A DNA stretch of 64,000 nt from an uncultured bacterium. Lineage in GTDB: Bacteria; Babelota; Babeliae; Babelales; Vermiphilaceae. The stretch covers positions 160,001 through 224,000 of the forward strand of contig OY969699.1 of NCBI GenBank assembly GCA_963702025.1. The letters run 5' to 3'. Within the stretch, counting starts at the first letter, position 1; every line of letters starts with the position of its first letter. The notes under the pieces are model-generated. The model was given only the letters and a program-made list of their open reading frames with translations, was not told where the DNA came from and did no database searches. Position numbers and translations under genes: made by a program. Positions 18,926-34,187 of this stretch are shown here, piece after piece.

Positions 18926-21607
18926 TCAATCAAGCCTTGAACGAACAACCCATTTTCGTGTCTCTTCAGTCCATAATACTGTTGATGCAACCAATACACA
19001 AAAAAGCCATTGATAGATATTGAGCCCGGTAGTCATAAAGATCTTCTGGAAAAAGGGGATATAGAGGACCAAAATCTGCAAAATAAATATCACAAAAGTA
19101 GCAATGATGAGCCAATAATTACCCCTCAGCCCCATGCTAAAAACAGATTTAGTCTCCGATCTACAGTTCCACGCATTAAACCATTGAAATAATACCAGGG
19201 TGGTTAATGTCATTGCCCGGGCAAGAGGTAGATTAATGCCGCTATAAAGAATAAACATACCCAAAGAACCTATGGCCATTGGAAGGGCAGCAAAGAACAT
19301 TTTGCCAACCATTGGCCCATCAATGAGGCTTATTTTTTTTCTTTTGAGCCAACTCTGCTCCGATAAAAGCCCCTTTTCTTGCTGTTCCATGGCAAGAGCG
19401 CTATCCAAAAACCCATCGCTGATAAGATTAAGCCACAAAATCTGTGCCGCAGTAAGTGGAAAAATCAAATGCCAATGGGGATAGATTAGCGCAACAAAAA
19501 ATGCACCAATAATAATAAGAATTTCAGCTACATTAGTTGAAAAGAAATATAAGATAACACGCCGCAACGTGTAGAGAATATGCCTTCCCTCTTGAATGCC
19601 ATTTAAAATATTAGAAACAGAATCATCTAACAAAATAATGTCGGCAGCCTCTTTTGCCACTTGCGTGCCCACTTTTCCCATTGCTATGCCGATATCGGCC
19701 GCAACTAATGAAGGCGCATCATTAACCCCATCACCGGTCATGGCAACTACCAGATCATTTGCATGGAGCGCTTTGATAATGCGTAGTTTTTGATCCGGAT
19801 CAACGCGAGAAAATACCGTAGTGTGCATAATCGCTTCATTTAATTGGTCATCATTCAGAGTAGCAAGTTCTGCGCCATCAATCGCCTCATCACCTTCTGC
19901 ATAAATACCGGCATACTTAGCAGTTGAAAGAGCCGTCCACTGATGGTCACCGGTTGCCATAATAACATGAAACCCGGCATTTCTCGCCTTTTTTATAGTA
20001 TGAATCGCATCCGAACGCAATGAGTCTTCAATACCAAATAAACCTAAAAATCGCAGTCCGTTTTTTACTTCTTGATTAAAATCAAATACTGTTTCTTTTT
20101 CAATTTTTTTTAGTTCAAACTCTTTGGTGGCACAGCAAATTACTCGCAGTCCTTGGGCCAATAGACTGCGTAACGCACTATTGGTTGCTTCATTAATATC
20201 CGACCGTTTGCCTATAAGTTCAGGCGAACCGGTAACAAAAACTATTCCTTTACCCCGATAATTATAAAAAGAAGCATGATACCCATGTGAAGAACCAAAA
20301 GGAATCTCATGGATTTTTTTATAGTCCTGTTCTAATTTTTCGAGGACCACTCCCAATTTTTGCGCAAAAACAAAAAGTGCCGCTTCGGTGGGATCCCCTT
20401 TAATTTCAAATGTTCCTCGCTCAGAAACCAAGGTGATCGTTGCCGTGTTTAAAAGATTTGCGGCAACAGCAAGCTGCCAAAGATCCGAATCGGGCATCAC
20501 CGTGATCGGCTCATTATCATGCAAAAGGTGGCCCTCAGCATAATAGCCCTTGCCGGTTACATGATAGGTTTTTCCACCACCATAGACAGTGCTCACGATC
20601 ATTTCATTGCGTGTTAAAGTACCAGTTTTATCAATAACAAGAGCATGCGCATGACCCAACCCTTCAACTGCTTGCATGTTTTTTATGAGTACCTGCTTTT
20701 TTGCCATCCGATAAACACCGGTAACCAGGACCAATGTTAAAACGACCGGTAATCCTTCAGGAATTACACAAATAAAGAGTGCCGTAAGCATCACGATAAG
20801 CTCTTTGGGAGATTGCCCAATCCACATGCCCAGAGAAAAAAGCATTAAACAAACAACAAAAATAAAAATAATAATCCACCAGGCAATCTTGCGCATCTCG
20901 TGCGCCAAGGGTACCTCCGTTTCAATTTCATGCAATGAACGTTGAATTTTCCCTCTCTGTGTTGCACTACCAATTGCAATAACCAGTGCCTTTGCCCATC
21001 CGCTCACTACCCAGGTTCCGGCATATGCCATATTGTGGCGATCAGCAAGCTGTTTTTTTTCTACTATGAGGTCAGCGCTCTTAAGAGCCGGCTCCGATTC
21101 TCCGGTTAATGATGATTCATCAATGCGCAACTCATACGCCTCTAAAATTCGCACATCGGCAGGCACCTGTTGTCCTTCTTGCAAAAGTATAATGTCGCCC
21201 GGCAGCAGATCTTTTGCCGCAATCAGGATTCTTTTGCCATTCCTGATAACCACACACTCTTGCTCAAAAAAATGTTTAAGGTTCACTAAAATATTCTGCG
21301 TTCTACTTTCCTGAATGGTGCCAATAAAACTATTAAATAATAAAATGCCGGCAATAATATAGGCATCGCGTGGATCATCGCCGAGAAAAAAAATAAGTAA
21401 CGCCGCGATGAGCAATAAATAAATCAATGGGCTTGCAAATTGAGAGAAAAAAATCCAAATCCAGTTTTGCCTTTTTTGATCAGGCACTGTGTTGTTTCCA
21501 AATTTTTTCTTTCGCGCAGCAATCTCTTTTGACGACAAACCATGATAAATATTGCTGGAATATTTATCAATTACTTCTTCTTGGCTCAGCTGATAAGGCT
21601 TTTTCAT
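18926..21607 (-). CDS. Cation-transporting P-type ATPase (type II, Ca2+-like)
   Basis: DESSLTGES, IPEGL, DKTGTLT, KGDPTE, TGDGVNDAP. Confidence 0.95.
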   Translation of the reverse strand: MKKPYQLSQEEVIDKYSSNIYHGLSSKEIAARKKKFGNNTVPDQKRQNWIWIFFSQFASPLIYLLLIAALLIFFLGDDPRDAYIIAGILLFNSFIGTIQESRTQNILVNLKHFFEQECVVIRNGKRILIAAKDLLPGDIILLQEGQQVPADVRILEAYELRIDESSLTGESEPALKSADLIVEKKQLADRHNMAYAGTWVVSGWAKALVIAIGSATQRGKIQRSLHEIETEVPLAHEMRKIAWWIIIFIFVVCLMLFSLGMWIGQSPKELIVMLTALFICVIPEGLPVVLTLVLVTGVYRMAKKQVLIKNMQAVEGLGHAHALVIDKTGTLTRNEMIVSTVYGGGKTYHVTGKGYYAEGHLLHDNEPITVMPDSDLWQLAVAANLLNTATITLVSERGTFEIKGDPTEAALFVFAQKLGVVLEKLEQDYKKIHEIPFGSSHGYHASFYNYRGKGIVFVTGSPELIGKRSDINEATNSALRSLLAQGLRVICCATKEFELKKIEKETVFDFNQEVKNGLRFLGLFGIEDSLRSDAIHTIKKARNAGFHVIMATGDHQWTALSTAKYAGIYAEGDEAIDGAELATLNDDQLNEAIMHTTVFSRVDPDQKLRIIKALHANDLVVAMTGDGVNDAPSLVAADIGIAMGKVGTQVAKEAADIILLDDSVSNILNGIQEGRHILYTLRRVILYFFSTNVAEILIIIGAFFVALIYPHWHLIFPLTAAQILWLNLISDGFLDSALAMEQQEKGLLSEQSWLKRKKISLIDGPMVGKMFFAALPMAIGSLGMFILYSGINLPLARAMTLTTLVLFQWFNAWNCRSETKSVFSMGLRGNYWLIIATFVIFILQILVLYIPFFQKIFMTTGLNIYQWLFCVLVASTVLWTEETRKWVVRSRLD

Positions 21608-22040
21608 ACTAATTTTTTATACTTTCTATTACTTTCGTGGCCATGATATAAAAATGCAAAATACATCTCAATGAATCACTAACCGTTACTAATTGAACTG
21701 CATAATGGTATGAAATTTATTGAAGAACATCAATATAGAGAGATAGGACGCGGGAGAAAATGTCCATTTTTTAGTTCACCCCACTCCCCTTCAGAGTCTT
21801 CCATCGCATGTCGCCTCCCGCGTACATAAATTACAGAGTCTCAATTACTTTACGCCAATAGAAGATATTTTTGCAAAGAGTTTAAAAATTTGATGAGATA
21901 TGAAGCAAACAACGGCTATATTGATGATTTTTGCGAAGTAGAATAATTGATAGTAAAGAAAACATCGTTGAAATTTTTCGATAAAATTAATAATACTCAA
22001 GGTGATATTATTAAATTATTTTCCAAAAGAAAGAATTGGT

Positions 22041-22313
22041 ATGAAAAAAATTATCATGTTACTGTCACTTACAATAATTACTACCTCTTTTATGCATGCC
22101 ATTTGTAAAAAACCGGATAAAGGCCATGTTGACCCAAATATTGTCCACTGCCCATATACCCAAGAAGATATAAATCGTTGTTATTGCAAAAAAGGAACTT
22201 GCTATACTGACTTTCAAAAAAGAAATGAATGTTTTTTTTGCAGCTGCCCTAAAAGCGAACATACCACCAAAGAAATCCCAAAAAAACAAAAGAAAAGAAG
22301 ACGCATATATTAA
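22041..22313 (+). CDS. Small secreted Cys-rich protein with basic tail
   Basis: Signal peptide; CYC, CFFCSC..H; C-terminal PKKQKKRRRIY. Confidence 0.7.
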   Translation: MKKIIMLLSLTIITTSFMHAICKKPDKGHVDPNIVHCPYTQEDINRCYCKKGTCYTDFQKRNECFFCSCPKSEHTTKEIPKKQKKRRRIY

Positions 22314-22451: not shown

Positions 22452-22484
22452 GGCCGTGCCAGCCGAAGCCTTGGCGTAGGCTGG
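22452..22484. repeat. Short hairpin repeat abutting the tmRNA 3' end
   Basis: ccagcc-gaagccttggcgta-ggctgg; related copies at about 4763-4789, 25287-25310 and 31895-31922. Confidence 0.65.
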
Positions 22485-22838
22485 AGGCGATGGGAGTTGA
22501 ACCCATGTCCGTTCTGTATCCTACTAAAAGCCACTACATGCTTAGCCTCTGTTTATACTCTTCTATCATCCCAGAGACAGGGTTTAATAAAAGAGGCCCG
22601 GTGCGTGATACCTCTCAAGCTACTCACTATGCAAAGCCTTACTTGAGTGTTCTATCTTGTTGATACGAGTTAGCGCAACTGATAGACACGTTATGCTAAC
22701 AAGCGCTCTTTGCTTACGCTTGAGCGGCAACTACAGGAGTTGCATTTCTTGTTTTGACCAATTGTTTAACGAGCACTTAGTCAACGCTCGGCATGCTCTT
22801 TTGGTATTCAACAGCTCGTCGAAACCAAATACGCCCCC
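22482..22838 (-). ncRNA. ssrA: tmRNA copy B (357 nt, CCA not encoded), tag (A)ATPVVAAQA
   Basis: 5' GGGGGCGTATTTGGTTTCGAC; 3' GGACATGGGTTCAACTCCCATCGCCTCCA; G3-U70 alanine acceptor stem; pk1 CGAGC/GCTCG; resume context AAGAAAT-GCA; tag ORF 22743-22714. Confidence 0.92.
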
Positions 22839-22867
22839 AAAATTTCAAAGAATCGCTATTAAATTAT

Positions 22868-22897
22868 ACTATAACAGTAATATTTCCCGTTTGTCAA
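22868..22897 (-). promoter_or_regulatory. Sigma70-type promoter for tmRNA copy B
   Basis: Minus strand TTGACA-N18-TATAGT with extended -10 TG, about 30 nt upstream of the tmRNA 5' end. Confidence 0.65.
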
Positions 22898-23043
22898 AAT
22901 TGCGACTAAGAAGGACCCTTTTTTGTGCAAAAGATTTATTAAATCAATGTTATTTTGCTTTTTTTAAATTTGTGATTGCTGTTTTTACAAAAATTCACGT
23001 AATATGATAATAAGATCATCAAATTTCATTAAAAAGTGATGGC

Positions 23044-24186
23044 ATGTTTAACAGAATTTTAAAATTACCTCTTAATGGCACCAGCAGTATTTTCTTATTT
23101 GGCCCCCGAGGAACCGGCAAAACATCATGGATCAAAGCCCATATGCCTGATGCCCTTTATCTTGACCTTCTGGATTTTTCATTATACAGTTCACTTTCAG
23201 CAGCTCCCGATCGGTTAGAAACCCTTATTCCAAAAGGGTTTGATGGCTGGATTGTTCTTGATGAAGTGCAACGGGTGCCTGAACTACTCAACGAGGTTCA
23301 TCGCTTAATTGAAAGCAAAAAACTCCGATTTTTACTCACCGGCTCAAGTGCCCGCAGTCTCAAACGAAAAGGGGTGAACCTTCTTGCGGGTCGAGCATTA
23401 CGATATACCATGCATCCGTTAACGGTACAAGAAATTGGTTCTCATTTTGATTTGGCACATGCGGTGCAATTTGGCATGTTACCAACCGCCGTTACCCATG
23501 AAGATCCCAAAAAATATTTAGAAAGCTATGTGCAAACCTATTTGCGCGAAGAGGTGTTGCAAGAGGGCATTTTGCGCAATGTGGGAACTTTTGCACGATT
23601 TTTAGAAATAGCCAGTTTTTCTCAGGGTAATTTAGTTAATTATTCAGAAATTGGGCGCGAGCTGGGACTTAATCGTCTGAGCGTTGCGAACAATTTTGAA
23701 ATACTTGATGACCTCTTGCTTTCCATCAGAATCGATCCATTCACGCAGCGCGCCAAACGCAAAATGGTTGCTCATCAAAAATTTTATTTCTTTGATGCCG
23801 GGGTTTATAGGGCAATACGCCCCATGGGCCCTCTTGACTCGCCCGAAGAATCTGACGGCGCTGCGCTCGAAACACTCTTTTTGCAGTCGCTTTGCGCGAT
23901 TAATGATTATTATGAGCTGGGATACACTATCTATTTTTGGCGCACCGCAAGCGGCACAGAAGTGGATTTTATTTTGTATGGGCCGCGAGGCATTCATGCT
24001 TTTGAAATCAAACGCTCAAGCACGGTACAAAATAAAGCGCTCAAGGGATTAAAGGATTTCCATGAAGATTACCCGGAAGCAAAATTACACTTTGTATTTG
24101 GCGGTAAAAATAAAGAATATCATGGCGACATTCAAGCCATTCCGTTTGAACAAGCACTAAGAGAATTGCCACAATTGCTTGGATAG
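23044..24186 (+). CDS. AAA_14/DUF4143-type ATPase with C-terminal PD-(D/E)XK-like domain
   Basis: GPRGTGKT, LDEVQ, LTGSS, KFYFFDAG, EVDFI..FEIK. Confidence 0.88.
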   Translation: MFNRILKLPLNGTSSIFLFGPRGTGKTSWIKAHMPDALYLDLLDFSLYSSLSAAPDRLETLIPKGFDGWIVLDEVQRVPELLNEVHRLIESKKLRFLLTGSSARSLKRKGVNLLAGRALRYTMHPLTVQEIGSHFDLAHAVQFGMLPTAVTHEDPKKYLESYVQTYLREEVLQEGILRNVGTFARFLEIASFSQGNLVNYSEIGRELGLNRLSVANNFEILDDLLLSIRIDPFTQRAKRKMVAHQKFYFFDAGVYRAIRPMGPLDSPEESDGAALETLFLQSLCAINDYYELGYTIYFWRTASGTEVDFILYGPRGIHAFEIKRSSTVQNKALKGLKDFHEDYPEAKLHFVFGGKNKEYHGDIQAIPFEQALRELPQLLG

Positions 24187-24202
24187 AGATAGTTTTACCG
24201 GA

Positions 24203-24505
24203 TTATTTTGATTTTGAAATCGAACTCAAGCTCATATCAATCTTTTTGCCAATCACCGCAGCAGCTTTATTTAAAGTAAGCAGTGTTACTGAGTAATTTT
24301 TTGGATCCATGAGCCTTTTTAATCCTGATCTGCTTGTCCCTAATTGTTTTGCCATCTCATCTTGAGTAAGGTGTTTTTTCTTCATGTGTTCTTTTAAGTT
24401 GCGCGCTATAACAGTTTTTACAGCGGCAGCATTAACTTCTTCTAAAATTCCTGCTTCCTCAAGAAAACTTTCGAAGCTTGATCCGATATGTTTGCTTTTT
24501 TTCAT
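24203..24505 (-). CDS. XRE-type HTH antitoxin-like regulator
   Basis: HIGSSFESFLEE N-terminus; HTH QDEMAKQLGTSRSGLKRLMDP; SVTLLTL. Confidence 0.8.
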   Translation of the reverse strand: MKKSKHIGSSFESFLEEAGILEEVNAAAVKTVIARNLKEHMKKKHLTQDEMAKQLGTSRSGLKRLMDPKNYSVTLLTLNKAAAVIGKKIDMSLSSISKSK

Positions 24506-24520
24506 ATAATCCTATGAAGA

Positions 24521-24829
24521 TTAATTATGCGCAGGATTAACTGAAAGATTTAAATTTAAGGCATGTATAATTGCTTTGATGCTTGACCATCGCGGATTAC
24601 CTTTTAAAGAAAGAATTCTATAAAGATTTACTCGATCGAGTTTAGTCATATCTGCTAGATCAGAGATATCTCCACCTCGAGCATCAAGAACATCTTTTAA
24701 AGCAAGTAAAAAAACGCGATCATCTTCATCCTTAAGAGCCGCATTCAAATAAGCAAGTGCTTCCTTTGGATCTTGAAGTTTTTCGAATAAATATTCTTTA
24801 AAATCTCTGTGTTGTTTTTTTTGTGCCAT
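24521..24829 (-). CDS. Addiction module antidote protein (HI1420-like HTH)
   Basis: AYLNAAL..FLLALKDV..G.S.LA....R.NLYR.LS..GNP. Confidence 0.85.
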   Translation of the reverse strand: MAQKKQHRDFKEYLFEKLQDPKEALAYLNAALKDEDDRVFLLALKDVLDARGGDISDLADMTKLDRVNLYRILSLKGNPRWSSIKAIIHALNLNLSVNPAHN

Positions 24830-24830
24830 A

Positions 24831-25160
24831 TTATTCCTCTTGATACGCTACCCAATATTGTTCTGCTTTTTCTATGTCTCTGCGCTGGGTTCGTTTAGTT
24901 CCCCCATTTAGAAGTATTACAATCATTAATGATTTTTTTCCATAATAAATCCGATAGCCAGGCCTTGGTCTATAACGATCTCACAAATTCCAGATTTGCT
25001 TCCCGTAACTGGTTTGCAACTTTGAAAATTACCAAGCCTCAGCCGCGCAATTCTTGCATTTATGATACTGCGATCTGTAAAATCTAGATCCTCTAATCAT
25101 TCAGCTTAAAGGCTCTTTCCCCGAGTTAGTCTTATAAGTGATTGTTTTTATCATACTCAT
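24831..25160 (-). pseudogene. RelE/HigB-like addiction module killer (HI1419-like) pseudogene
   Basis: Manual translation gives YKTNSGKEP/AE*LEDL..INARIARLRLGNF..K.V..GICEI.ID.G/PGYRIYYG..IVILL.GG.K.TQ..DIEKA..YW, with two frameshifts and a TGA at the conserved Trp. Confidence 0.85.
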
Positions 25161-25430
25161 ATAGATATGGTAGCTTATAAGCAACAATATTGTAAAGGAT
25201 AAAATAAAATTTTTTCTTTTTCGCTCTTTGATCCCTCTACCGGATTTGCCGACGCCGGGTCTACAAGGACGGAAAAGCAAGCGAGCCCTGGGGAAGCTTT
25301 AGCGAAGTAGCAAGTCTCAGCTTTTTTCACCCAAAAGCCAATAATGCGCCAAGCCAATTCCCCTATTGGATTTTCCGATAGCTTAAATCTAAAAAATGAA
25401 CATATAAAGGTTTTTGGGGCATATTGCTCA

Positions 25431-25458
25431 TTGACAAATATGCAATAATGCATATAAT
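25431..25458 (+). promoter_or_regulatory. Sigma70-type promoter of the giant gene
   Basis: TTGACA-N16-TATAAT. Confidence 0.6.
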
Positions 25459-25490
25459 TAGGGTATAATATACGTCAAATATATATAAAA

Positions 25491-28400
25491 ATGAAGGTTA
25501 TTATGAAATTTTCTATAAAAATCACCGTTTTCTTGTGCCTTATAGGTTTACAGGCATACGCAAGCGAAAAGCAAAGCAGTATTGCTCTGACCAGAGCACA
25601 GCAATTAATGGGTCACATAGCCCCCTCTGTTGATATTCCGGGAAACCTAAATTCTACTGCGCACCAGAGAATTGACGGGATTTTGGGCCATATTGCGCCT
25701 GAATTGCAAGAATATCCTTTTGACGTTGAATTAAATCAATGTGCCGGCATATCCCAAGATGCGATAGATATTTTTCAAAAAAGGCTCATTGAAAAAAAAG
25801 AAATAAAACTTCCTTTAAATACGATTATTGAATGGAACTTATCAGGAAATCACCAGTTTTTTATAGATTCGCTCAACGGTAAAAGTTCTGAAATCAACCC
25901 AACCCGCACCGCAATGGCTAAAAAATGGGTTCGCAATGCCTCTACTCGTATATTTAATGATCTCAACCGATCCTTCTTGGAGATTGTGGTTAATGCTTTT
26001 GACGCAATGTTACCCGAAGATCAATCGGTGGGCAAATTCGGCATGGGATTTTTCTCATTATTAAGCTTCTTGGATCTCATTGAAACGGATGGCGCAATTA
26101 TAGCCATAGATACCACTGCTTTGGATAAAAATGGAAAACCCTTCACCTTCACGATGCACATTGAAAAAAATACCGCTCAAGATATTTATGTAACTTTCAA
26201 ATTACAAGAAACACCGAACACACAAACAGGCTCTAAAATTGCTATTTTACCTAAAAATACAGCAAAATCCTTTTCCCCCGGAACGATAGAAAATATATAT
26301 CGCTACTTACATTTTTTACAGTTTTATGAAAATGGAACAATTAATCTGACCATTGAAAGAAATGGAACATTACAAAACGAAAAGTTATGCGCAGGAACCA
26401 ACACTACTGCTATTGCTCAAGTTGCACTAAGTTCACAAGAACTATCAGCCACCGATAAAGGAAGTGGTATCACCGTTCCTGTTGCCTTAACAAAACTGCT
26501 TGTTCCCAGCTCATCATCAAAAGGAAATATTAAGATAAAATCTTTAGAAGATGCAAAGAAAGAGGCACTCAATAACATCTCAAAGCCACAGCTGGTAAAC
26601 TTTAAAGGGAAAACGAAAGAAAATCTCAACTACTCACACTTCTTAATTAAAATTAATGGTGTTGTGGTAATTGCCATTCCTAATAAGCAAAAAGAAATAG
26701 AAAATCAGATTGTTGATTCAACCGGGCACATAAAAGATCTATTAATTTCCATGCCGCAAATTACGCAGTTAACCTTGGCACGTAATGAAATTTATATAAA
26801 CCCTGATGGCAAGAGCTTTGAAGAAACGTATTTAAAAAAGGTGATAGAAAACGCCATTAATACTATTTTATTAATTAATGATAGCACCGATCAAAAAACA
26901 TTGGTTGAAAATCAACTTCTCATCTCTGCATTATATAATGCCTTTGATTATTGGGAAAAACAGACGGCGGCCGAACACGTTAATGGGCTCTTTACCAGTT
27001 ATATAAAAGAAGTTCTTGCAAAATTATTAGAAAGCAAAAAAAATATTTTTCCGGTGCACCCGTTATTCTATTCGATGACAAAATCAATTTGTGATACGTT
27101 TTTAGGAACTACCAATCAACAGTGTACTTTGTTACCAATAGATGCCTCTATTGTTTCTTATAGTTATTCAAAATTAGAAAACTTTTTGAAAGCACAATTT
27201 TTAACCAAAGCATCAAAAATAGAAAATCCGACACATAAAAGTTTATTCTTAAAAGGTATTAATCAAGAGTTAATCGCGGGTAAAATTATCTTATTTGTAC
27301 CCGAAGATGTATTAAAAAATAAAACGGGAAAACCAACTATAACTGATGCCGGTTTACGCCAAACGTTATTTATACCAATTTCATTTTTACAACAAAGTAC
27401 AAACGAAGATGCTTTAACTAATAAAATTATTAACTATTTCACTCAAACAATCCTCAGTTCTTATAACAAGAATCCCGAAAATTCACATCAAAAAGTCTTT
27501 TTAATTAATAAAGATAAAGCGGGTGATTTTTACTGTAGCAGGCTCTATGATTTACCGAATGATAAAATTACCTTTTTAACTCAAAATCAATCCCAGCTCG
27601 CTGATGAATTTTTAAACACACATAAAGAACTAATAAAGAATTTGCAATTACCCGACGAAAATAGAAACTCTATACTCAGGTTTATTGAATGTTATGGCAA
27701 AGATTGTAAAGAAGCATTTCATCGGCATTCAGAGGATAATGAGAAGTTTGAATATAATATTGATATTTTTCATCCAGCCATAGCTACCGTTGACCATCTT
27801 GTTGTACAATTTAGGAAATTTTTTACCGCATTTAAAAATATACACAATGGACAAAGAGACGCACTATTAGAAGGCCCGTTTCGAGATGATGAATTTCCTC
27901 ATGTATTTTGTAAGATCTTAGAAAACACCATTTTTTTTGATGAAGCAACGAATACATTTCACAAGTTTGATAATGCAAAAGCAAAAAGACTATTTATTAA
28001 CGAATTCAGAACAAACCAAGCTTTCAAAGAACTAGCTCAGCTCAATGCTCCTGAATATTTTTCCAGAAGATTTGAGGCAGAGGCTAAACCTTTGTTATTG
28101 AAACTGATAAAAGACAATAATTTATTAGGTGAAAAAATTAATTCGTTGAATCTGGTGAATTTTATATTTTATAAGCTGCTTCAGAATAGTGAATTAAGGA
28201 CTCGTGACTATATACTTGAATATAATCATAATATCGAAATATTCCCTAAATTAGATAAAAACCTGATTGCTTTAGAAAATCTATTTCTATCATTAGTATC
28301 AAGAAAAAATTATGAAAACTTTTATTGGCGTAATTATGTAGAACCGATTTTATCTAAAAATATTAGCGTGCAATCGAAGGGGTTAAATAAAGAACTGGTG

Positions 28401-31400
28401 CGCAAAGCGATTACAGAAAAATTAGAAGAAATTCCGGTCAGTCTCGAATATCAAAATACATTAACAGCGAGTATCGAGAATTTAAATATTCCTTCCACGT
28501 TAGTAGACTCATTGGTTGCGTATCTTAATATAAGAGATGAATCAAAATTGACCGAAAGTAATAAAAAATCTTACTTCGAATTCAGAAATTCGATGCTTGG
28601 GATGTATAAGCATTATTTTAAAATTAATGATAATGATATTGCCTATAATTATGGCTATGGCGATCGCGTTAAAGCCATTCATCCGACTAATGATGTCACC
28701 GGTAATGAATTAATAACATTGCTGCAAAAAATTGATCCTAACCCGACTTTATACAATAAGCTTTTAGAATTCCAGATTACTGATTTCATTTTCCAAACTA
28801 ATAGCATGGTAAAATCCCAGGATCTCTTAAATAAAAAATTTTACGTGCCATCGCTGTTCGCAAATACTCCTGTCTCAATACTTGCTTATCTTTTAAAAAG
28901 CGGTGTGCATGAAAATATCATAAAAATTATTCTTCAAGATTCACGCAATAGCGCTGAGTTAATGTACATTTCATATTTAATAGCTTTATTGCATTCTAAT
29001 CCTACTATTAAACTGTTGTTACGGAATGAAAATAAAGAAATAGAAAACAATTTAAAAGTTATTATTAAAACATTGATCCAAGAAAAAGTTGATCAGGATA
29101 GAATTATCAAAATTTATAATGAAAATAGATCAAAAAATTCAATAAAAGAACGACTAGAATCTTTCTCTACTGAACCTATCGCTAAAAACATTCAAAGCTA
29201 TTTAGCCGATTTAGCACAAAATTCAGTCAACTTTGCGCGCAAACAATCGTTTGTCGCATCTAAATTAAAATTACCAGATACAAAAAAATTCACTCTCAAA
29301 CAATTGATTAATGCCCACTGCACCGGCACCGGACTGAGTGCATTGTTACCCATTAATGATCCAAACATTAAAAGAACGCCAGCGCAATTAAACAGCATTA
29401 TTGAACATATAAACAAACAAGAGAATGAATTAGAATTTGGCAAAATCGAACAATCGGTTGAAGCAGGGAGTGAAAAGAGCCCGGTATGCGGCACTATAAC
29501 TGAATGTTTACAAAATTCGATTGACTCGGTAAAACAGTTTATTACATCAATGCAACAGAATAAAACTGAAATAAGAGAATCTTTAAAAGCACGATATAGC
29601 ACCACTTCTAAGGTGCTCGACGCAGTATCTTCAATAGAATTTTCTTTAGCAACGATACCTTCCAAAATCGATAATAATAACCATCTCTCTTTAACAATAA
29701 GGGACCATATCGGTTTTGCAACCTTAAAATCGTTAATTACCGATTTTCTCTTGCCGGATTACAGCAACAAAAGACCTGATTTAGGAAACGTTGGCGATAT
29801 GGGCAATGGTTCATTTAAAATGTATCAACAGGCAGAATTTGTTTCGATTATTACCCGGCCCGTTGAGGACCCAACAAAAGTGTATATGTTAACCATTGTT
29901 CCTTTAAGAAATAAATTAACCAATCGCGTTGAGGATTTATCAATTACTCTCCGTGATATTACCGCTCAAGTTCCTAAAACTCTTTTTGGCACAACGATCC
30001 GCATAGTGTTCTTACCTGAACCAAGTAATAGAAATGATATTAATTTATTGTATGTTAAAGATTTCTTAACCAATACCGTTGGCGCCACCGATATCACATT
30101 GCCCCATGGGAAAAAAATAACTATTTATCTGAAGAATGGAAAAGAAGCAATCTTATTAAATAAACCCACAAAAACTGTTTTCCAAACAGTGTACCCGGAA
30201 ACCGGCAAAGTTAAATTTAAAGTAAATCAGCGCGAGAGTGATTACTTGCAAAGCTTTATAACTACCGGAGGCGTTCCCTTTAGAACCTTGCCTTCTTTAT
30301 GTAAACAGATGAATTTATTGCCAACTAATTTTATTACCGATTTTAGTTTCGGCTACCTTGTGGATTTGGATATAAACAGCTATGAACCGGTTCAAAGTAG
30401 AACATTGCTACAAATGAACAAAGAAAATCATATCCAATTAAAACAGGCGCTCCTTGATGCCTATTTTATCATTGGCTTGCACAAAGGCATCAATAATTCA
30501 AATTATTTTGACAAAGTATTTACCCATTTTGGCAGTTCGTGCCATTCATTAGAACAAGTTAGCTTAAGCTCTCAACTCAATGAGACATGCAATGAGATGA
30601 TAAACAACTTTTTAAATTCCAACTCAGTTACCACGATGGAACCGGAACTCTTCTTTACCTATTACAAACCTTCATGGGCGGACAAGAGTTTTTATCACCA
30701 TATCAAAGAGGTGTATGATACGATTCTGGACAGCGTGAATGCGCAGATAAAAGAAAATAAGAGGCTTATTGAAGAGTGGCACACCAAAAATAAAAATGAC
30801 CTCACCACCATCGCTACCAGCGAAGATAAAGCATTGGCAGAACAATTAAAGGAAAAATTAGCAAATGAGTTTAAGCCATTGAGAGAAAAATGTGCCCACG
30901 CAATTGAGACTATTTTTAACAATTGGAAATTCCAATTTAAAACATCAAAAAATGAAACTGCAAATCTTTTTGAAACAAACGTTGTAATACCATGGGTGTT
31001 TAAAAAGGCTGAGGGAATTAGTACCGGCTTTAAAAATGCACTAATGGAAATACCGACAATAAACAAAGATGGGGGAAAAAATAAATCTTCTTCTGCTGAA
31101 TCCATATATTCTCATAATTTAAACATAGTCTCGTTATTTAACGACTTAATGAAGCATAGTCTTTTGAGTTATTGTAATTTATTTTTAAACAAAATAGGCG
31201 TAACAGATATACAAAACAAACTAAGTAATGCCTCTTTTTATTACAATCCCTACCAATTAACAAGTGGATTTTACGTCCCAAAAACTAAAGAATTAAAAAT
31301 CAATTTAGCATTTGTCTCAGTCGCAGATTATTTTGAGATGTTGATTAGAATATTAGAAAACGATGCTACCGGGATCAGGTTAAATAAAACCTATAATGAG

Positions 31401-31754
31401 TTATTTGCAAATAATGCCGGCAATGAGGCAACGTTGACCCATGAGCTTGAGCATGCACGGCGCGAGGATAGCCACAATGGCCCCCACGGCCCTGGATTGG
31501 ATGCTGAGGGAAATATGTCTAATTTTAGACAATGCGCTAATAGTTTTAGTAGAAAAGCCCAAGAGGCCGGGTTACTGCAAGACTGGATAGCGGATATTCG
31601 GAATTTCTACAATAGTAAAGTTGATGCCCGTAACCGCGATTCTGAAAAGGAAAGTATGAAAAAATACGCTTTAAGCAACGTGAGAAGAGTTGAAGCTGAA
31701 AATAAAATATCTCTCATGCAAGAATTGGGATATTTATTCGGGGCTAAGTTGTAA
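25491..31754 (+). CDS. 2087 aa secreted protein with two GHKL (Hsp90-like) ATPase modules and a C-terminal HEXXH motif
   Basis: Signal peptide (likely start 25503); LEIVVNAFDA..VGKFGMGFFS and TECLQNSIDS..RDHIGF..VGDMGNGSF; THELEHAR..HGP; ends AKL. Confidence 0.75.
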   Translation: MKVIMKFSIKITVFLCLIGLQAYASEKQSSIALTRAQQLMGHIAPSVDIPGNLNSTAHQRIDGILGHIAPELQEYPFDVELNQCAGISQDAIDIFQKRLIEKKEIKLPLNTIIEWNLSGNHQFFIDSLNGKSSEINPTRTAMAKKWVRNASTRIFNDLNRSFLEIVVNAFDAMLPEDQSVGKFGMGFFSLLSFLDLIETDGAIIAIDTTALDKNGKPFTFTMHIEKNTAQDIYVTFKLQETPNTQTGSKIAILPKNTAKSFSPGTIENIYRYLHFLQFYENGTINLTIERNGTLQNEKLCAGTNTTAIAQVALSSQELSATDKGSGITVPVALTKLLVPSSSSKGNIKIKSLEDAKKEALNNISKPQLVNFKGKTKENLNYSHFLIKINGVVVIAIPNKQKEIENQIVDSTGHIKDLLISMPQITQLTLARNEIYINPDGKSFEETYLKKVIENAINTILLINDSTDQKTLVENQLLISALYNAFDYWEKQTAAEHVNGLFTSYIKEVLAKLLESKKNIFPVHPLFYSMTKSICDTFLGTTNQQCTLLPIDASIVSYSYSKLENFLKAQFLTKASKIENPTHKSLFLKGINQELIAGKIILFVPEDVLKNKTGKPTITDAGLRQTLFIPISFLQQSTNEDALTNKIINYFTQTILSSYNKNPENSHQKVFLINKDKAGDFYCSRLYDLPNDKITFLTQNQSQLADEFLNTHKELIKNLQLPDENRNSILRFIECYGKDCKEAFHRHSEDNEKFEYNIDIFHPAIATVDHLVVQFRKFFTAFKNIHNGQRDALLEGPFRDDEFPHVFCKILENTIFFDEATNTFHKFDNAKAKRLFINEFRTNQAFKELAQLNAPEYFSRRFEAEAKPLLLKLIKDNNLLGEKINSLNLVNFIFYKLLQNSELRTRDYILEYNHNIEIFPKLDKNLIALENLFLSLVSRKNYENFYWRNYVEPILSKNISVQSKGLNKELVRKAITEKLEEIPVSLEYQNTLTASIENLNIPSTLVDSLVAYLNIRDESKLTESNKKSYFEFRNSMLGMYKHYFKINDNDIAYNYGYGDRVKAIHPTNDVTGNELITLLQKIDPNPTLYNKLLEFQITDFIFQTNSMVKSQDLLNKKFYVPSLFANTPVSILAYLLKSGVHENIIKIILQDSRNSAELMYISYLIALLHSNPTIKLLLRNENKEIENNLKVIIKTLIQEKVDQDRIIKIYNENRSKNSIKERLESFSTEPIAKNIQSYLADLAQNSVNFARKQSFVASKLKLPDTKKFTLKQLINAHCTGTGLSALLPINDPNIKRTPAQLNSIIEHINKQENELEFGKIEQSVEAGSEKSPVCGTITECLQNSIDSVKQFITSMQQNKTEIRESLKARYSTTSKVLDAVSSIEFSLATIPSKIDNNNHLSLTIRDHIGFATLKSLITDFLLPDYSNKRPDLGNVGDMGNGSFKMYQQAEFVSIITRPVEDPTKVYMLTIVPLRNKLTNRVEDLSITLRDITAQVPKTLFGTTIRIVFLPEPSNRNDINLLYVKDFLTNTVGATDITLPHGKKITIYLKNGKEAILLNKPTKTVFQTVYPETGKVKFKVNQRESDYLQSFITTGGVPFRTLPSLCKQMNLLPTNFITDFSFGYLVDLDINSYEPVQSRTLLQMNKENHIQLKQALLDAYFIIGLHKGINNSNYFDKVFTHFGSSCHSLEQVSLSSQLNETCNEMINNFLNSNSVTTMEPELFFTYYKPSWADKSFYHHIKEVYDTILDSVNAQIKENKRLIEEWHTKNKNDLTTIATSEDKALAEQLKEKLANEFKPLREKCAHAIETIFNNWKFQFKTSKNETANLFETNVVIPWVFKKAEGISTGFKNALMEIPTINKDGGKNKSSSAESIYSHNLNIVSLFNDLMKHSLLSYCNLFLNKIGVTDIQNKLSNASFYYNPYQLTSGFYVPKTKELKINLAFVSVADYFEMLIRILENDATGIRLNKTYNELFANNAGNEATLTHELEHARREDSHNGPHGPGLDAEGNMSNFRQCANSFSRKAQEAGLLQDWIADIRNFYNSKVDARNRDSEKESMKKYALSNVRRVEAENKISLMQELGYLFGAKL

Positions 31755-31789
31755 AATGCTTTTTTCGAACCTAGTTTTGAATATTAAAC

Positions 31790-31834
31790 CCGCATGGTTC
31801 GATACGCTCGCTATGCTCGCACTCACCCGAGCGG
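31790..31834. repeat. Palindromic repeat unit (same family as 4692, 5069, 9215, 47636, 47768)
   Basis: ccgcatggttcgatacgctcgctatgctcgcactcacccgagcgg. Confidence 0.85.
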
Positions 31835-31868
31835 TTTTAGTATTATTTTTATTAATCCTTTAAAGAAC

Positions 31869-32052
31869 TGGCTGCGCCAGGCGTCCTTCGAGACCCGGCC
31901 TACGCCAAGGCTTCGGCGGGCATGGCGCAAGCTCCTCAGCTTGTCCGCCATAGCTCCAAAGGAGCGACGGCTGGAGATGACCGGAAGGACGCGTTTACTC
32001 CCGAGCCCCCGCCGAGGGGTTGCCGAGCCGGAAGGCCCGGATAAGCGAAGAC
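31869..32052. repeat. Nested GC-rich palindromic repeat cluster 3' of tmRNA copy A
   Basis: Outer gcgtccttc...gaaggacgc encloses cctacgccaaggcttcggcggg and ccgccatagctccaaaggagcgacgg hairpins. Confidence 0.7.
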
Positions 32053-32477
32053 TGGTGGAGGCGATGGGAGTCGAACCCATGTCCGCATAATATCAAACTT
32101 CAAGCACTACATGCTTAGTCTGAGCATCTACGATTTGACCAGCTTCAAAGACACAGCGCAGCCAAAAAGACAGCTTAGTATACTAGTCATGCCACAAAAC
32201 TATACAATCTTGCATGGTAGTTCCATCTTTTATAATACGTATTAGCCAAACTGACAGACACGTCCAGCTAATAAGGCATCAGCTAATTAAGCAAAAACAG
32301 GTCCGCTTTGAGCGAAATCATTAAAGCTAAAAAGTGATGTTGGAATTGAACTATAGTTCGCTTCCACTTTTGCATCTTCTGCATTTCTTATTTTGACCAA
32401 TTGTTTAACGAGCACTTAGCCAACGCTCGGCATGCTCTCAAAGCTATCAATAACACGTCGAAACCAAATACGCCCCC
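32053..32477 (-). ncRNA. ssrA: tmRNA copy A (425 nt, CCA encoded), tag (A)AEDAKVEANYSSIPTSLFSFNDFAQSGPVFA
   Basis: 5' GGGGGCGTATTTGGTTTCGAC; 3' GCGGACATGGGTTCGACTCCCATCGCCTCCACCA; G3-U70; pk1; resume context AAGAAAT-GCA; tag ORF 32382-32287; 1.25 kb downstream of smpB. Confidence 0.95.
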
Positions 32478-32540
32478 AGTAATTTCAAAGAAAAGATTAT
32501 AGTAAAACAGTAAGTAATTATTGATTATAAGTCAAATTTT

Positions 32541-33656
32541 TTAAAAAAGAGAGCACTCCTCCTTTTTTTCTTTTCTTTTAACCTTTGCTTCTTGAGCAAG
32601 AAGAGTTTTGCAATCCCAAATTCTTACTCCTTTTTCGGTATACGAACCAAATGCCAACTCTTGACCATTAGGGCTAAATGTTAACGAGCCAGCTTCGTGG
32701 CTTGCATTCTTATTGCTCGTGCTCGCCCTTATTAATTTTGCTGGCTGGTTTCCGGACAAGTCAGCAAGGAGCAAGTTTCCATCATCGATGCTCGCTGCAA
32801 AAATTGTTTGTTGATTTGGGGCAGGGTTAATGGCAAGTGCAATGGCGGATACTTTTTTCTCGGGGGCATTAGAAAGCGCCGCTGAAATCTTAGAGCCTCT
32901 TGGTGATTCCTTTTTGCCTTCTAGATTGTATACCGCTAATAATGCGGTACTACTTGCATCATAGACCTTAATATGTGACGAACAGGCAAGAAGCTTGTTA
33001 CCATTCTCAGCATAGGCAATTTTTAACTGGCCATCGCGGTCCTTTAAAGAATAATAAGCATAATCTCTTCTGCTATCCCATATTTTTACTGTGTCGTCTG
33101 CTGCACAGGTAGCGAAATGTTCCGGTTCAACAGGATGCCATTTAACTGCATGGATAGCACCTTCATGACCGTAAAATGCTCCTGCCTGTAATGTTTCTTT
33201 TTCGCGAATATCCCATATTTTTATCACACCATCTTTATAGCCCGCCAAAATGAGATTACCCTCTTTACTATAGTCCACTGCCGTTACCGGTACATTATCC
33301 TGCATCTCCCTGATGCATGCACCTTTTTCAATATCCCACATTTTAATTTTGTCATGGTCTCCGGTGGCATATTTCAATTCCCGTGGATCGGTGGCTAGTG
33401 CGACAACCGGACCGGTATTTATCCCGTCTGCTAAGCAGCTATTTTTAGCATTTCGTTTCCAAACTTTAATGGGAGAATTATTTAACTTATTATCATTGTA
33501 AGTGCCTGCAATAATGTAGGAGCCGTCATAACTATATGCCACCGATTCAACTGGGTAATTTGATTCTAAAAACGTCTTGGCCAAAGGCTCCATACACAAA
33601 ACTGCCAAGTGCGCCCAACACAACAAGCAATACATAAGAATTAAGAAATAGTTCAT
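32541..33656 (-). CDS. Secreted WD40-repeat protein with C-terminal CaaX-like motif
   Basis: Repeated IKxWD, GH..WD units; signal peptide ..VLC-ME; ends KRKEKKEECSLF. Confidence 0.85.
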   Translation of the reverse strand: MNYFLILMYCLLCWAHLAVLCMEPLAKTFLESNYPVESVAYSYDGSYIIAGTYNDNKLNNSPIKVWKRNAKNSCLADGINTGPVVALATDPRELKYATGDHDKIKMWDIEKGACIREMQDNVPVTAVDYSKEGNLILAGYKDGVIKIWDIREKETLQAGAFYGHEGAIHAVKWHPVEPEHFATCAADDTVKIWDSRRDYAYYSLKDRDGQLKIAYAENGNKLLACSSHIKVYDASSTALLAVYNLEGKKESPRGSKISAALSNAPEKKVSAIALAINPAPNQQTIFAASIDDGNLLLADLSGNQPAKLIRASTSNKNASHEAGSLTFSPNGQELAFGSYTEKGVRIWDCKTLLAQEAKVKRKEKKEECSLF

Positions 33657-33728: not shown

Positions 33729-34187
33729 TTAGAATTTATAGCGCCCACGCAGCTCACGAGACGTCTCTCTTTTGATATCGCGCTCTTTGATGGTCTCTTT
33801 TTTATTCGCTGCTTTTTTGTGCTTCGCAACACCCAATTCTACCTTTGCAAAATTTCGGTCATTAAAATAGATCTTAAGAGGAACTATGGTAACTCCTTTA
33901 CGGGAAATATCACCGATGATGCGATTGATTTCTTTACGATTCAAAAGAAGCTTACGGCTTCGCGTAGCGTCCTCTTTTTTAGCTTGAAATGCTTGGGTGT
34001 AGGGAGTTATATTGCAATTTAATAAAAATAACTGTCCATCATGAACGGTGGCAAATGAGCCGATAAGTGATACTTTACCCGCCCGCAATGATTTAACTTC
34101 GTCACCCGTTAATACAATGCCTGCTTCTAATCGTTCAAGAATTTCATAATCAAAAAATGCTTTTTTGTTCTGTGCAACAACTTTCAT
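33729..34187 (-). CDS. smpB: SsrA-binding protein
   Basis: NKKAFFDY..EAGIVLTGDEVKSLR, R.RKLLLNRKEI. Confidence 0.97.
   Translation of the reverse strand: MKVVAQNKKAFFDYEILERLEAGIVLTGDEVKSLRAGKVSLIGSFATVHDGQLFLLNCNITPYTQAFQAKKEDATRSRKLLLNRKEINRIIGDISRKGVTIVPLKIYFNDRNFAKVELGVAKHKKAANKKETIKERDIKRETSRELRGRYKF

Follow-up and report, generated by a model that had tools for sequence, protein, structure and literature searches.

The 64,000-nucleotide window analysed here, from an uncultured bacterium of the Babelales, carries two complete genes for transfer-messenger RNA (tmRNA, the product of ssrA), copy A (32053..32477) and copy B (22482..22838), both on the minus strand and both near the only smpB gene of the genome. 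ssrA is a textbook single-copy gene, and additional copies tend to be attributed to islands, plasmids or faulty assemblies. Judging from the sequences, the pair is a real, selected and recurrent two-gene variant of trans-translation in a lineage devoid of ClpXP. Both RNAs are very probably working tmRNAs, and the chances are about even that the pair is kept because its tags differ in fate or in cost, A providing a long tag and B a short one, with SmpB in common.

The source genome (G000) consists of a single 1.60-Mb contig, 95% complete and 0.9% contaminated. The closest titled relatives of its SmpB include Candidatus Babeliales and Dependentiae/TM6 records, and cultured Dependentiae have been described as intracellular parasites of protists (PMC6561590).

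Structure, conservation and age of the tmRNA pair

Both genes are called by ARAGORN at these coordinates and match the Rfam tmRNA model RF00023 over its whole length (positions 1–374 of 374), with 144.9 bits for A and 141.9 bits for B as compared with a gathering score of 47. They are the only matches above cut-off in the whole genome. Most of the structural description given in the original prediction is borne out. The strings quoted there for helix 2 and for the second pseudoknot (pk2) lie where they had been placed, and the 5′ ends are indeed identical, over 22 nt rather than the 21 nt announced. The alanyl acceptor stem with its G3-U70 pair, the discriminator A and the T-arm are invariant in 8 B genes and in 11 A genes. 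The T-arms of the two copies had been called near-identical, which holds for the T-stem, invariant in the 8 B genes, the T-loop of B being one base off that of A. The tRNA-like domain and the first pseudoknot (pk1) of A and B are nearly identical, and the whole copies are about 30% apart.

The promoter proposed for B (TTGACA-18-TATAGT, 22868..22897, read from 22897 on the minus strand) is present with an 18-nt spacing, 11/12 matches and a TG. Promoter-like sites in the B region amount to 2, as compared with 2.0 in shuffled sequences, and it is position and conservation that argue for this one, TTGACA being found upstream of 8/8 B genes. Similarly, TTGAC lies upstream of 10/11 A genes, the eleventh being cut by a contig end. 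The likely sigma-70-type promoter of A (TTGACT-17-TACTGT, 8/12, 32507..32535, minus strand) falls below the promoter-scan threshold and is deduced from the same spacing in orthologs.

Both copies had been proposed to be under selection, which is supported by their low divergence relative to four-fold degenerate sites and by compensatory changes of base pairs. Between G000 and the close metagenome relative L216, changes are seen at 11/422 positions of A and 17/357 of B, as compared with 660/1958 four-fold sites (33.7%) in 15 neighbouring genes. The corresponding values for G002 and G003 are 46/428 and 20/358, versus 74/145 four-fold sites taken from two genes only. Over the genus as a whole, differences reach 65–67% at four-fold sites, close to saturation, and 22–24% in the B genes. 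Covariation was scored for pk1 to pk4 of B, leaving out the second stem of pk3, the register of which is unclear. Among the 8 B genes, 32 of the 94 pairs have changed on both sides, a count reached in 0/500 shuffles and dropping to 3–8 when the alignment is slid. The proportion of paired cells in the B alignment is 95.9%, a figure favoured by the fact that the 94-pair structure was hand-drawn from the same B sequences, and falls to 35–41% upon sliding.

When the pair was sought in related genomes, as suggested by the original prediction, it was found in 4/8 genomes of the genus and on two metagenome contigs, copy A being kept in 8/8. Two RF00023 matches occur in 8/80 genomes of the family, with both genes on the same contig in G000, G002, G003 and G004, which are the four of the genus, and in G011 and G013. 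G172 and G187 were set aside as pairs, their second genes lying on other contigs, with very long branches and amid small uncharacterised open reading frames (ORFs). These second tmRNAs (L155 and L157, respectively) are highly diverged, and their contigs are probably phage or foreign. In a sample of the order, two matches were obtained for 3/151 genomes, namely G000, G073 (same contig) and G061, the last being set aside because its copies are near-identical and sit at contig ends. A motif scan of metagenomes yielded 8 loci, of which L214 and L216 hold both copies and L218, L219 and L221 B-type genes. In a control phylum (that of G250, the locus of which is titled Bacteroidia), with 9 candidates scored per genome, two copies were seen in 0/144 genomes with a match, out of 151 searched. 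The unrelated genome G249 (L093) has two RF00023 matches, located on separate contigs, with one of them at the edge of its contig.

A tree computed without the tag region groups the 8 B genes in one clade (100/95) and 11 A genes in another (100/95), which includes all single-copy genes of the genus. This tree comprises 96 genes, from the family, from metagenomes (8) and from an outgroup (6), G061, G172 and G187 being left out. A recent duplication within the genome, which would place A of G000 with its B, could be rejected (approximately unbiased test, p-AU 0.025). The protein tree (FastTree, 70 taxa, up to 12 genes, with much missing data) reads ((G000,L216),((G004,G006),((G002,G003),(G007,(G005,G001))))), with supports of 0.94–1.0. 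The B-bearing G000/L216 lineage is thus the deepest branch of the genus, and B is also present in G004 and in G002/G003. From this placement, B is ancestral in the genus and has been lost at least twice.

B groups with the genes of G020/G193, from another genus (97/91), and an A+B clade is not rejected (p-AU 0.32), nor is a clade uniting B and the short copies found in G011 and G013 (p-AU 0.26); the number of origins is therefore two or three. G011 and G013 show a second arrangement at the same locus, with MutS-like and oxidoreductase genes between the copies, and their short copies group together (98/88). The copies of G073 sit within their own family, and represent an independent event.

The possibility that B is a passenger, i.e., the far end of an integrated element that brought in an entire tmRNA gene, a pseudogene undergoing decay, or an artefact of mixed strains in the assembly, looks very improbable in this light. 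The copies do form direct repeats around variable, mobile-looking cargo, and tmRNA genes are frequent island sites (PMC11915505); however, no integrase was found between the copies in G000 or among 24 inter-copy ORFs of six relatives, the two tyrosine recombinases of the genome are ~700 and ~900 kb away, the spacing is just 527 nt in G004, and the shared tmRNA motif gave 0 matches in viral contigs in one motif scan. An integrase-borne ssrA island was therefore rejected, the far end being a whole gene with a promoter and not a partial repeat. As for strain mixing, an earlier two-tmRNA case, that of Hydrogenivirga, was judged to be an assembly blend (PMC4227106), and G061, G172 and G187 do resemble mixed bins or phage contigs. 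The worry about a chimeric assembly is nevertheless dispelled for the present locus by a 14.6-kb contig from an independent run (X2), which holds both copies, as do L214 and L216. Decay is hardly compatible with the strong selection and covariation. As an account of why B is maintained, the passenger hypothesis is largely refuted; the grouping of B with genes from another genus also speaks for it, and an origin of B by transfer is compatible with the data. Of 20 runs, one of them RNA, none covers half of the stretch; the contigs of the RNA run (X20) cover 10/30 bins, which include neither tmRNA gene, and the organism is barely present in that run.

Long and short tags, candidate proteases and possible reasons for keeping both

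The tag frame of A (32287..32382, minus strand) has the 31 codons originally read, followed by a stop, and encodes AEDAKVEANYSSIPTSLFSFNDFAQSGPVFA; two local hairpins lie within it. That of B (22714..22743, minus strand) has 9 codons plus stop and encodes ATPVVAAQA, also as first read. It starts at position 96, the same position and context as in A. Another frame, proposed for B by ARAGORN, was rejected since the former is conserved in 8/8 B genes, as a homologous frame of 7–9 codons with an Ala-stop end. The tag frame is likewise open, with an Ala-stop end, in 11/11 genes of the A clade. These A-clade tags prefer C-ending codons (TTC for 17/30 Phe, as compared with a genome-wide fraction of 0.19), as would be the case for a frame that is translated.

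In 6/6 dual loci of the genus, the A tag has 30–34 residues and the B tag 7–9. Long and short tags are also paired outside the genus, with 46 and 10 residues in G013 and 33 and 13 in G073. The long and short genes of G011 measure 454 and 366 nt; in the assembly, the tag frame of the 454-nt gene has 18 codons, but a shift of one base opens a longer frame that ends in Ala, which probably points to an indel. The long copy is the upstream or smpB-proximal one in every pair. In the clade that lost B (G001, G005 and G007, to which L220 is assigned from its A sequence), A tags have 17–21 residues.

The machinery expected to read such tags turned out to be different from that first envisaged. There is indeed one SmpB, as had been proposed. 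ClpXP and ClpCP had been put forward as tag readers, and neither ClpP nor ClpX was found in G000 or in nearly any relative searched. In G000, the search for ClpP gave one weak, SppA-like match, the one Clp ATPase (858 aa) is ClpB-like, with no ClpX, and HslV was not found. With positive controls that worked, ClpP was detected in 2/201 genomes of the order, and within the family neither the ClpX zinc finger nor HslV-type subunits turned up (0/80 genomes each). Babeliales thus seem to be without ClpP, ClpX and HslV and yet to keep two Lon paralogs, a feature that was not found stated in the literature covered. The proteases of G000 include two Lon (804 and 787 aa, 42% identical), one FtsH and one S41 protease, all of which are candidate tag readers. 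G000 also has an ArfB-sized release-factor homolog, and RqcH gave no match above cut-off. In Mycoplasma pneumoniae, a 27-aa tag is degraded in vivo by Lon, not by FtsH (PMC8403727). The long tag of Mesoplasma florum, with NYAFA at its end, is also recognised by Lon (PMC9382460), and a further source reports reading of the Mollicute long tag by Lon (PMC11986505).

According to the favoured explanation, a second tmRNA gene would have gone to fixation next to the existing one in the common ancestor of the genus, by duplication or from a relative of the same family. Both would have been retained since then as working tmRNAs, expressed, charged and engaged in tagging with one SmpB between them. SmpB–tmRNA selects stalled ribosomes, which is the basis for expecting competition between A and B. 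Since their tRNA-like domain and pk1 are nearly identical, they would compete for the same stalled ribosomes, with no substrate choice, and the share of each would be set by the separate promoters. The long tag appended by A contains hydrophobic and aromatic residues and would most likely act, in the way known from Mycoplasma, as a strong multipartite degron recognised by Lon (or FtsH). B would append a family-typical tag of 7–9 residues ending in A-x-A, so that release costs little and the degron is weaker or read in another way. The cell could thereby set rescue capacity and degradation strength separately. Such a difference in tag fate or cost appears as the best reading because the long/short split is stable and repeated in two or three origins. 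An extended version can be put forward only tentatively: in a two-channel system that evolved more than once after the loss of ClpXP, promoter switching between the short-tag and long-tag tmRNAs might decide whether rescued proteins undergo fast destruction, are spared or go to another protease (Lon-1, Lon-2 or FtsH), for example in the replicating versus the released stage.

Several observations weigh against a role of the tag difference. The widely varying tag length of single-copy relatives weakens any conclusion drawn from that difference alone: in 69 single-copy genes of the family (a set without G166, the frame of which is misaligned, and without the second genes of G172 and G187), tags range from 3 to 33 residues with a median of 12, 7/69 having at least 27 residues and 40/69 at most 13, and tag length thus drifts without duplication. 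The cut-offs that define long and short were picked after seeing the data, and two or three independent origins underlie the long/short pattern. B is absent from G005, G006 and G007, which are contiguous across its site, and G006 has kept a 33-residue A tag after losing B. No remnant of B was found in 4 loci of single-copy congeners; G001, where the contig ends 1.4 kb past A, was not counted as lacking B. A pairing of two Lons with two tmRNAs was rejected as a correlation, as at least two Lon are found in 73/80 family genomes; being family-wide, the two Lons permit the tmRNA pair and do not explain it.

Dosage could account for part of this picture: the second gene would be an ordinary tmRNA kept because more helps, only the A-x-A end being read, and length drifting in the absence of ClpXP. 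This explanation is possible, though clearly less probable than the preceding one. It agrees with the broad range of single-copy tags, 64/69 of which end in Ala (29/69 in FA), with the repeated loss of B, and with the fact that the near-consensus promoter belongs to B. In addition, ribosome release and not degradation is essential in M. pneumoniae, where the degron is dispensable for growth (PMC8403727), another point against a role of tag fate. Dosage does not, however, predict that the two length classes stay apart in all the dual loci of the genus at 65–67% four-fold divergence, nor that the split is repeated in G013 and G073, and a stronger promoter would presumably be a cheaper route in a 1.6-Mb genome.

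Further points on the same side concern the RNA itself, and raise the possibility that the A extension has been kept as a structured insert, with a part in stability, binding or regulation and the peptide as a by-product, or that B is a partly active modulator competing for SmpB and AlaRS. In the A tag frame, four-fold sites have changed at 0/13 between G000 and L216, and G002 and G003 differ by 15 non-synonymous versus 2 synonymous codon changes. Moreover, 15/34 long frames fold better than their synonymous recodings (mean z -1.54). Selection on the A extension may thus act on the RNA and not on the peptide, but the hairpins differ between A orthologs, no excess of folding is seen in the long frames of G002 and G003 (z -0.5 and 0.0), and the frame has been kept open to its Ala-stop throughout the A clade. 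The A frame displays both a codon bias of translated genes and a constraint at the RNA level, so that either may be what is selected in the extension. As regards B, the gene ends at the discriminator A with no encoded CCA, a feature that the original prediction did not flag, whereas CCA is encoded in A, in 37/38 tRNA genes of the genome and in 66/70 single tmRNA genes of the family. Its helix 2a is also weakened, position 1 being paired and positions 2 and 3 mismatched, a pattern that B alone displays among the 118 genes scored; the short gene of G011 has three mismatches, and B of L216, outside this count, shares the 2x2 mismatch. A molecule reduced to the tRNA-like domain inhibits tmRNA, perhaps by titrating SmpB (PMC4131195). 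Yet helix 2a is normal in the other B genes, and those of G002 and G003 encode CCA. As in the present B, CCA is not encoded in 4/70 single-copy genes of the family, and the genome has one PF01743 nucleotidyltransferase, presumably the CCA enzyme. Such a specialisation at the RNA level is altogether unlikely to be what maintains the pair.

Some tags of the order are unusual in other respects. In 8/34 long Babeliales tags, a membrane-helix-like hydrophobic run (19-residue hydropathy 1.8–2.4) is followed by 2–4 basic residues, a share biased by the choice of twelve order-level genes for their length. These are the tags of G013 (long), G026, G152, G162, G046, G090, G029 and G100, 7/8 being from single-copy genes. 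By their tail-anchor-like composition, they could deliver rescued chains to FtsH. The only tmRNA of G175 (L162) encodes a tag of three alanines. In G209 (L193), the frame stops after 4 codons and a normal-looking tail lies one base off, probably because of an indel.

The surrounding locus

The gene order is smpB, a WD40 gene, A, 9.2 kb of cargo, B, a 103-aa gene, a P-type ATPase gene, ompH, pth and alaS. The sole smpB of the genome lies at 33729..34187 (minus strand) and is separated from A by the WD40-repeat gene (32541..33656, minus strand), missing in the close relative L216. Downstream of B, the 103-aa gene (22002..22313, plus strand) and the P-type ATPase gene (18926..21607, minus strand) mark the position of B across the genus. 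A hairpin repeat with a terminator-like site lies behind B (22452..22481, minus strand). A related copy in inverted orientation lies behind A (31895–31926), the repeat behind B being placed at 22453–22484; the genome holds 8 copies within two mismatches, and tmRNA genes of relatives have similar sequences behind them.

The variable cargo between the copies includes an AAA_14/DUF4143 ATPase gene (plus strand) and two HTH antitoxin-like genes (minus strand), within 23044..24829, and a gene for a 2087-aa protein (25491..31754, plus strand). The latter gene, of lower G+C content (0.34), is missing from close relatives, among them L216, and is skipped in the X2 contig, the same skip being seen in X6. 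Its product has no Pfam, NCBIfam or PHROGs match; the N-terminal part resembles HATPase_c_3 (GHKL) clusters (score 0.95), and a second GHKL-like motif set and a C-terminal HExxH can be recognized by eye. The two antitoxin-like genes (24203–24829) have no adjacent toxin gene, and their products are 100% identical in L216, where neighbours are 75–98% identical, one other small gene excepted. Around copy A of G002 (L038; six before A, one after) and of G003 (L039), WD40 genes with signal-peptide-like starts form tandem arrays. The smpB–tmRNA region represents a hotspot for the gain and loss of genes.

Significance and relation to known systems

A selected pair across a genus of reduced genomes implies that two tmRNAs can be worth keeping; as the two tags occur naturally in the same cell, they lend themselves to the study of the effect of tag length. 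With the loss of ClpXP across the order, Babeliales would represent a second, independent case beside the Mollicutes for the co-evolution of tags with Lon. Since laboratory strains can express these RNAs and proteases, the question is open to direct tests, and new orthogonal tag–protease pairs could result. In the literature searched, outside of which most subscription papers lie, neither a conserved tmRNA pair nor the tags of Babeliales were found described. The covered parts of PMC11915505 hold no discussion of tmRNA pairs or of this phylum; its database of 97,179 tmRNA sequences may well list these genes.

Each of the two genes resembles the standard one-piece tmRNA (RF00023) working with SmpB, by the whole-model match, G3-U70, T-arm, four pseudoknot regions, tag frame and proximity to smpB. 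The difference lies in the presence of two copies, about 30% diverged and kept across a genus. With islands at tmRNA genes and phage-borne tmRNAs, the locus shares a direct-repeat layout and variable genes between the copies, whereas a complete gene with a promoter of its own stands at either end, no integrase is found and the one motif scan of viral contigs gave no match. Earlier assemblies with more than one complete tmRNA gene have been reported, one report being a single sentence with no list and another case having been judged a blend of two genomes (PMC4227106); in the parts of these reports covered, no vertically inherited, selected pair with two tag classes is described. The Mollicute system (Mycoplasma, Mesoplasma) is similar in its reduced, host-dependent genome without ClpXP, the presence of Lon, and a long tag with an aromatic-Ala end. 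In contrast with the Mollicutes, the bacterium studied here has a short-tag copy beside the long-tag copy and two Lons, and tag length varies across its order.

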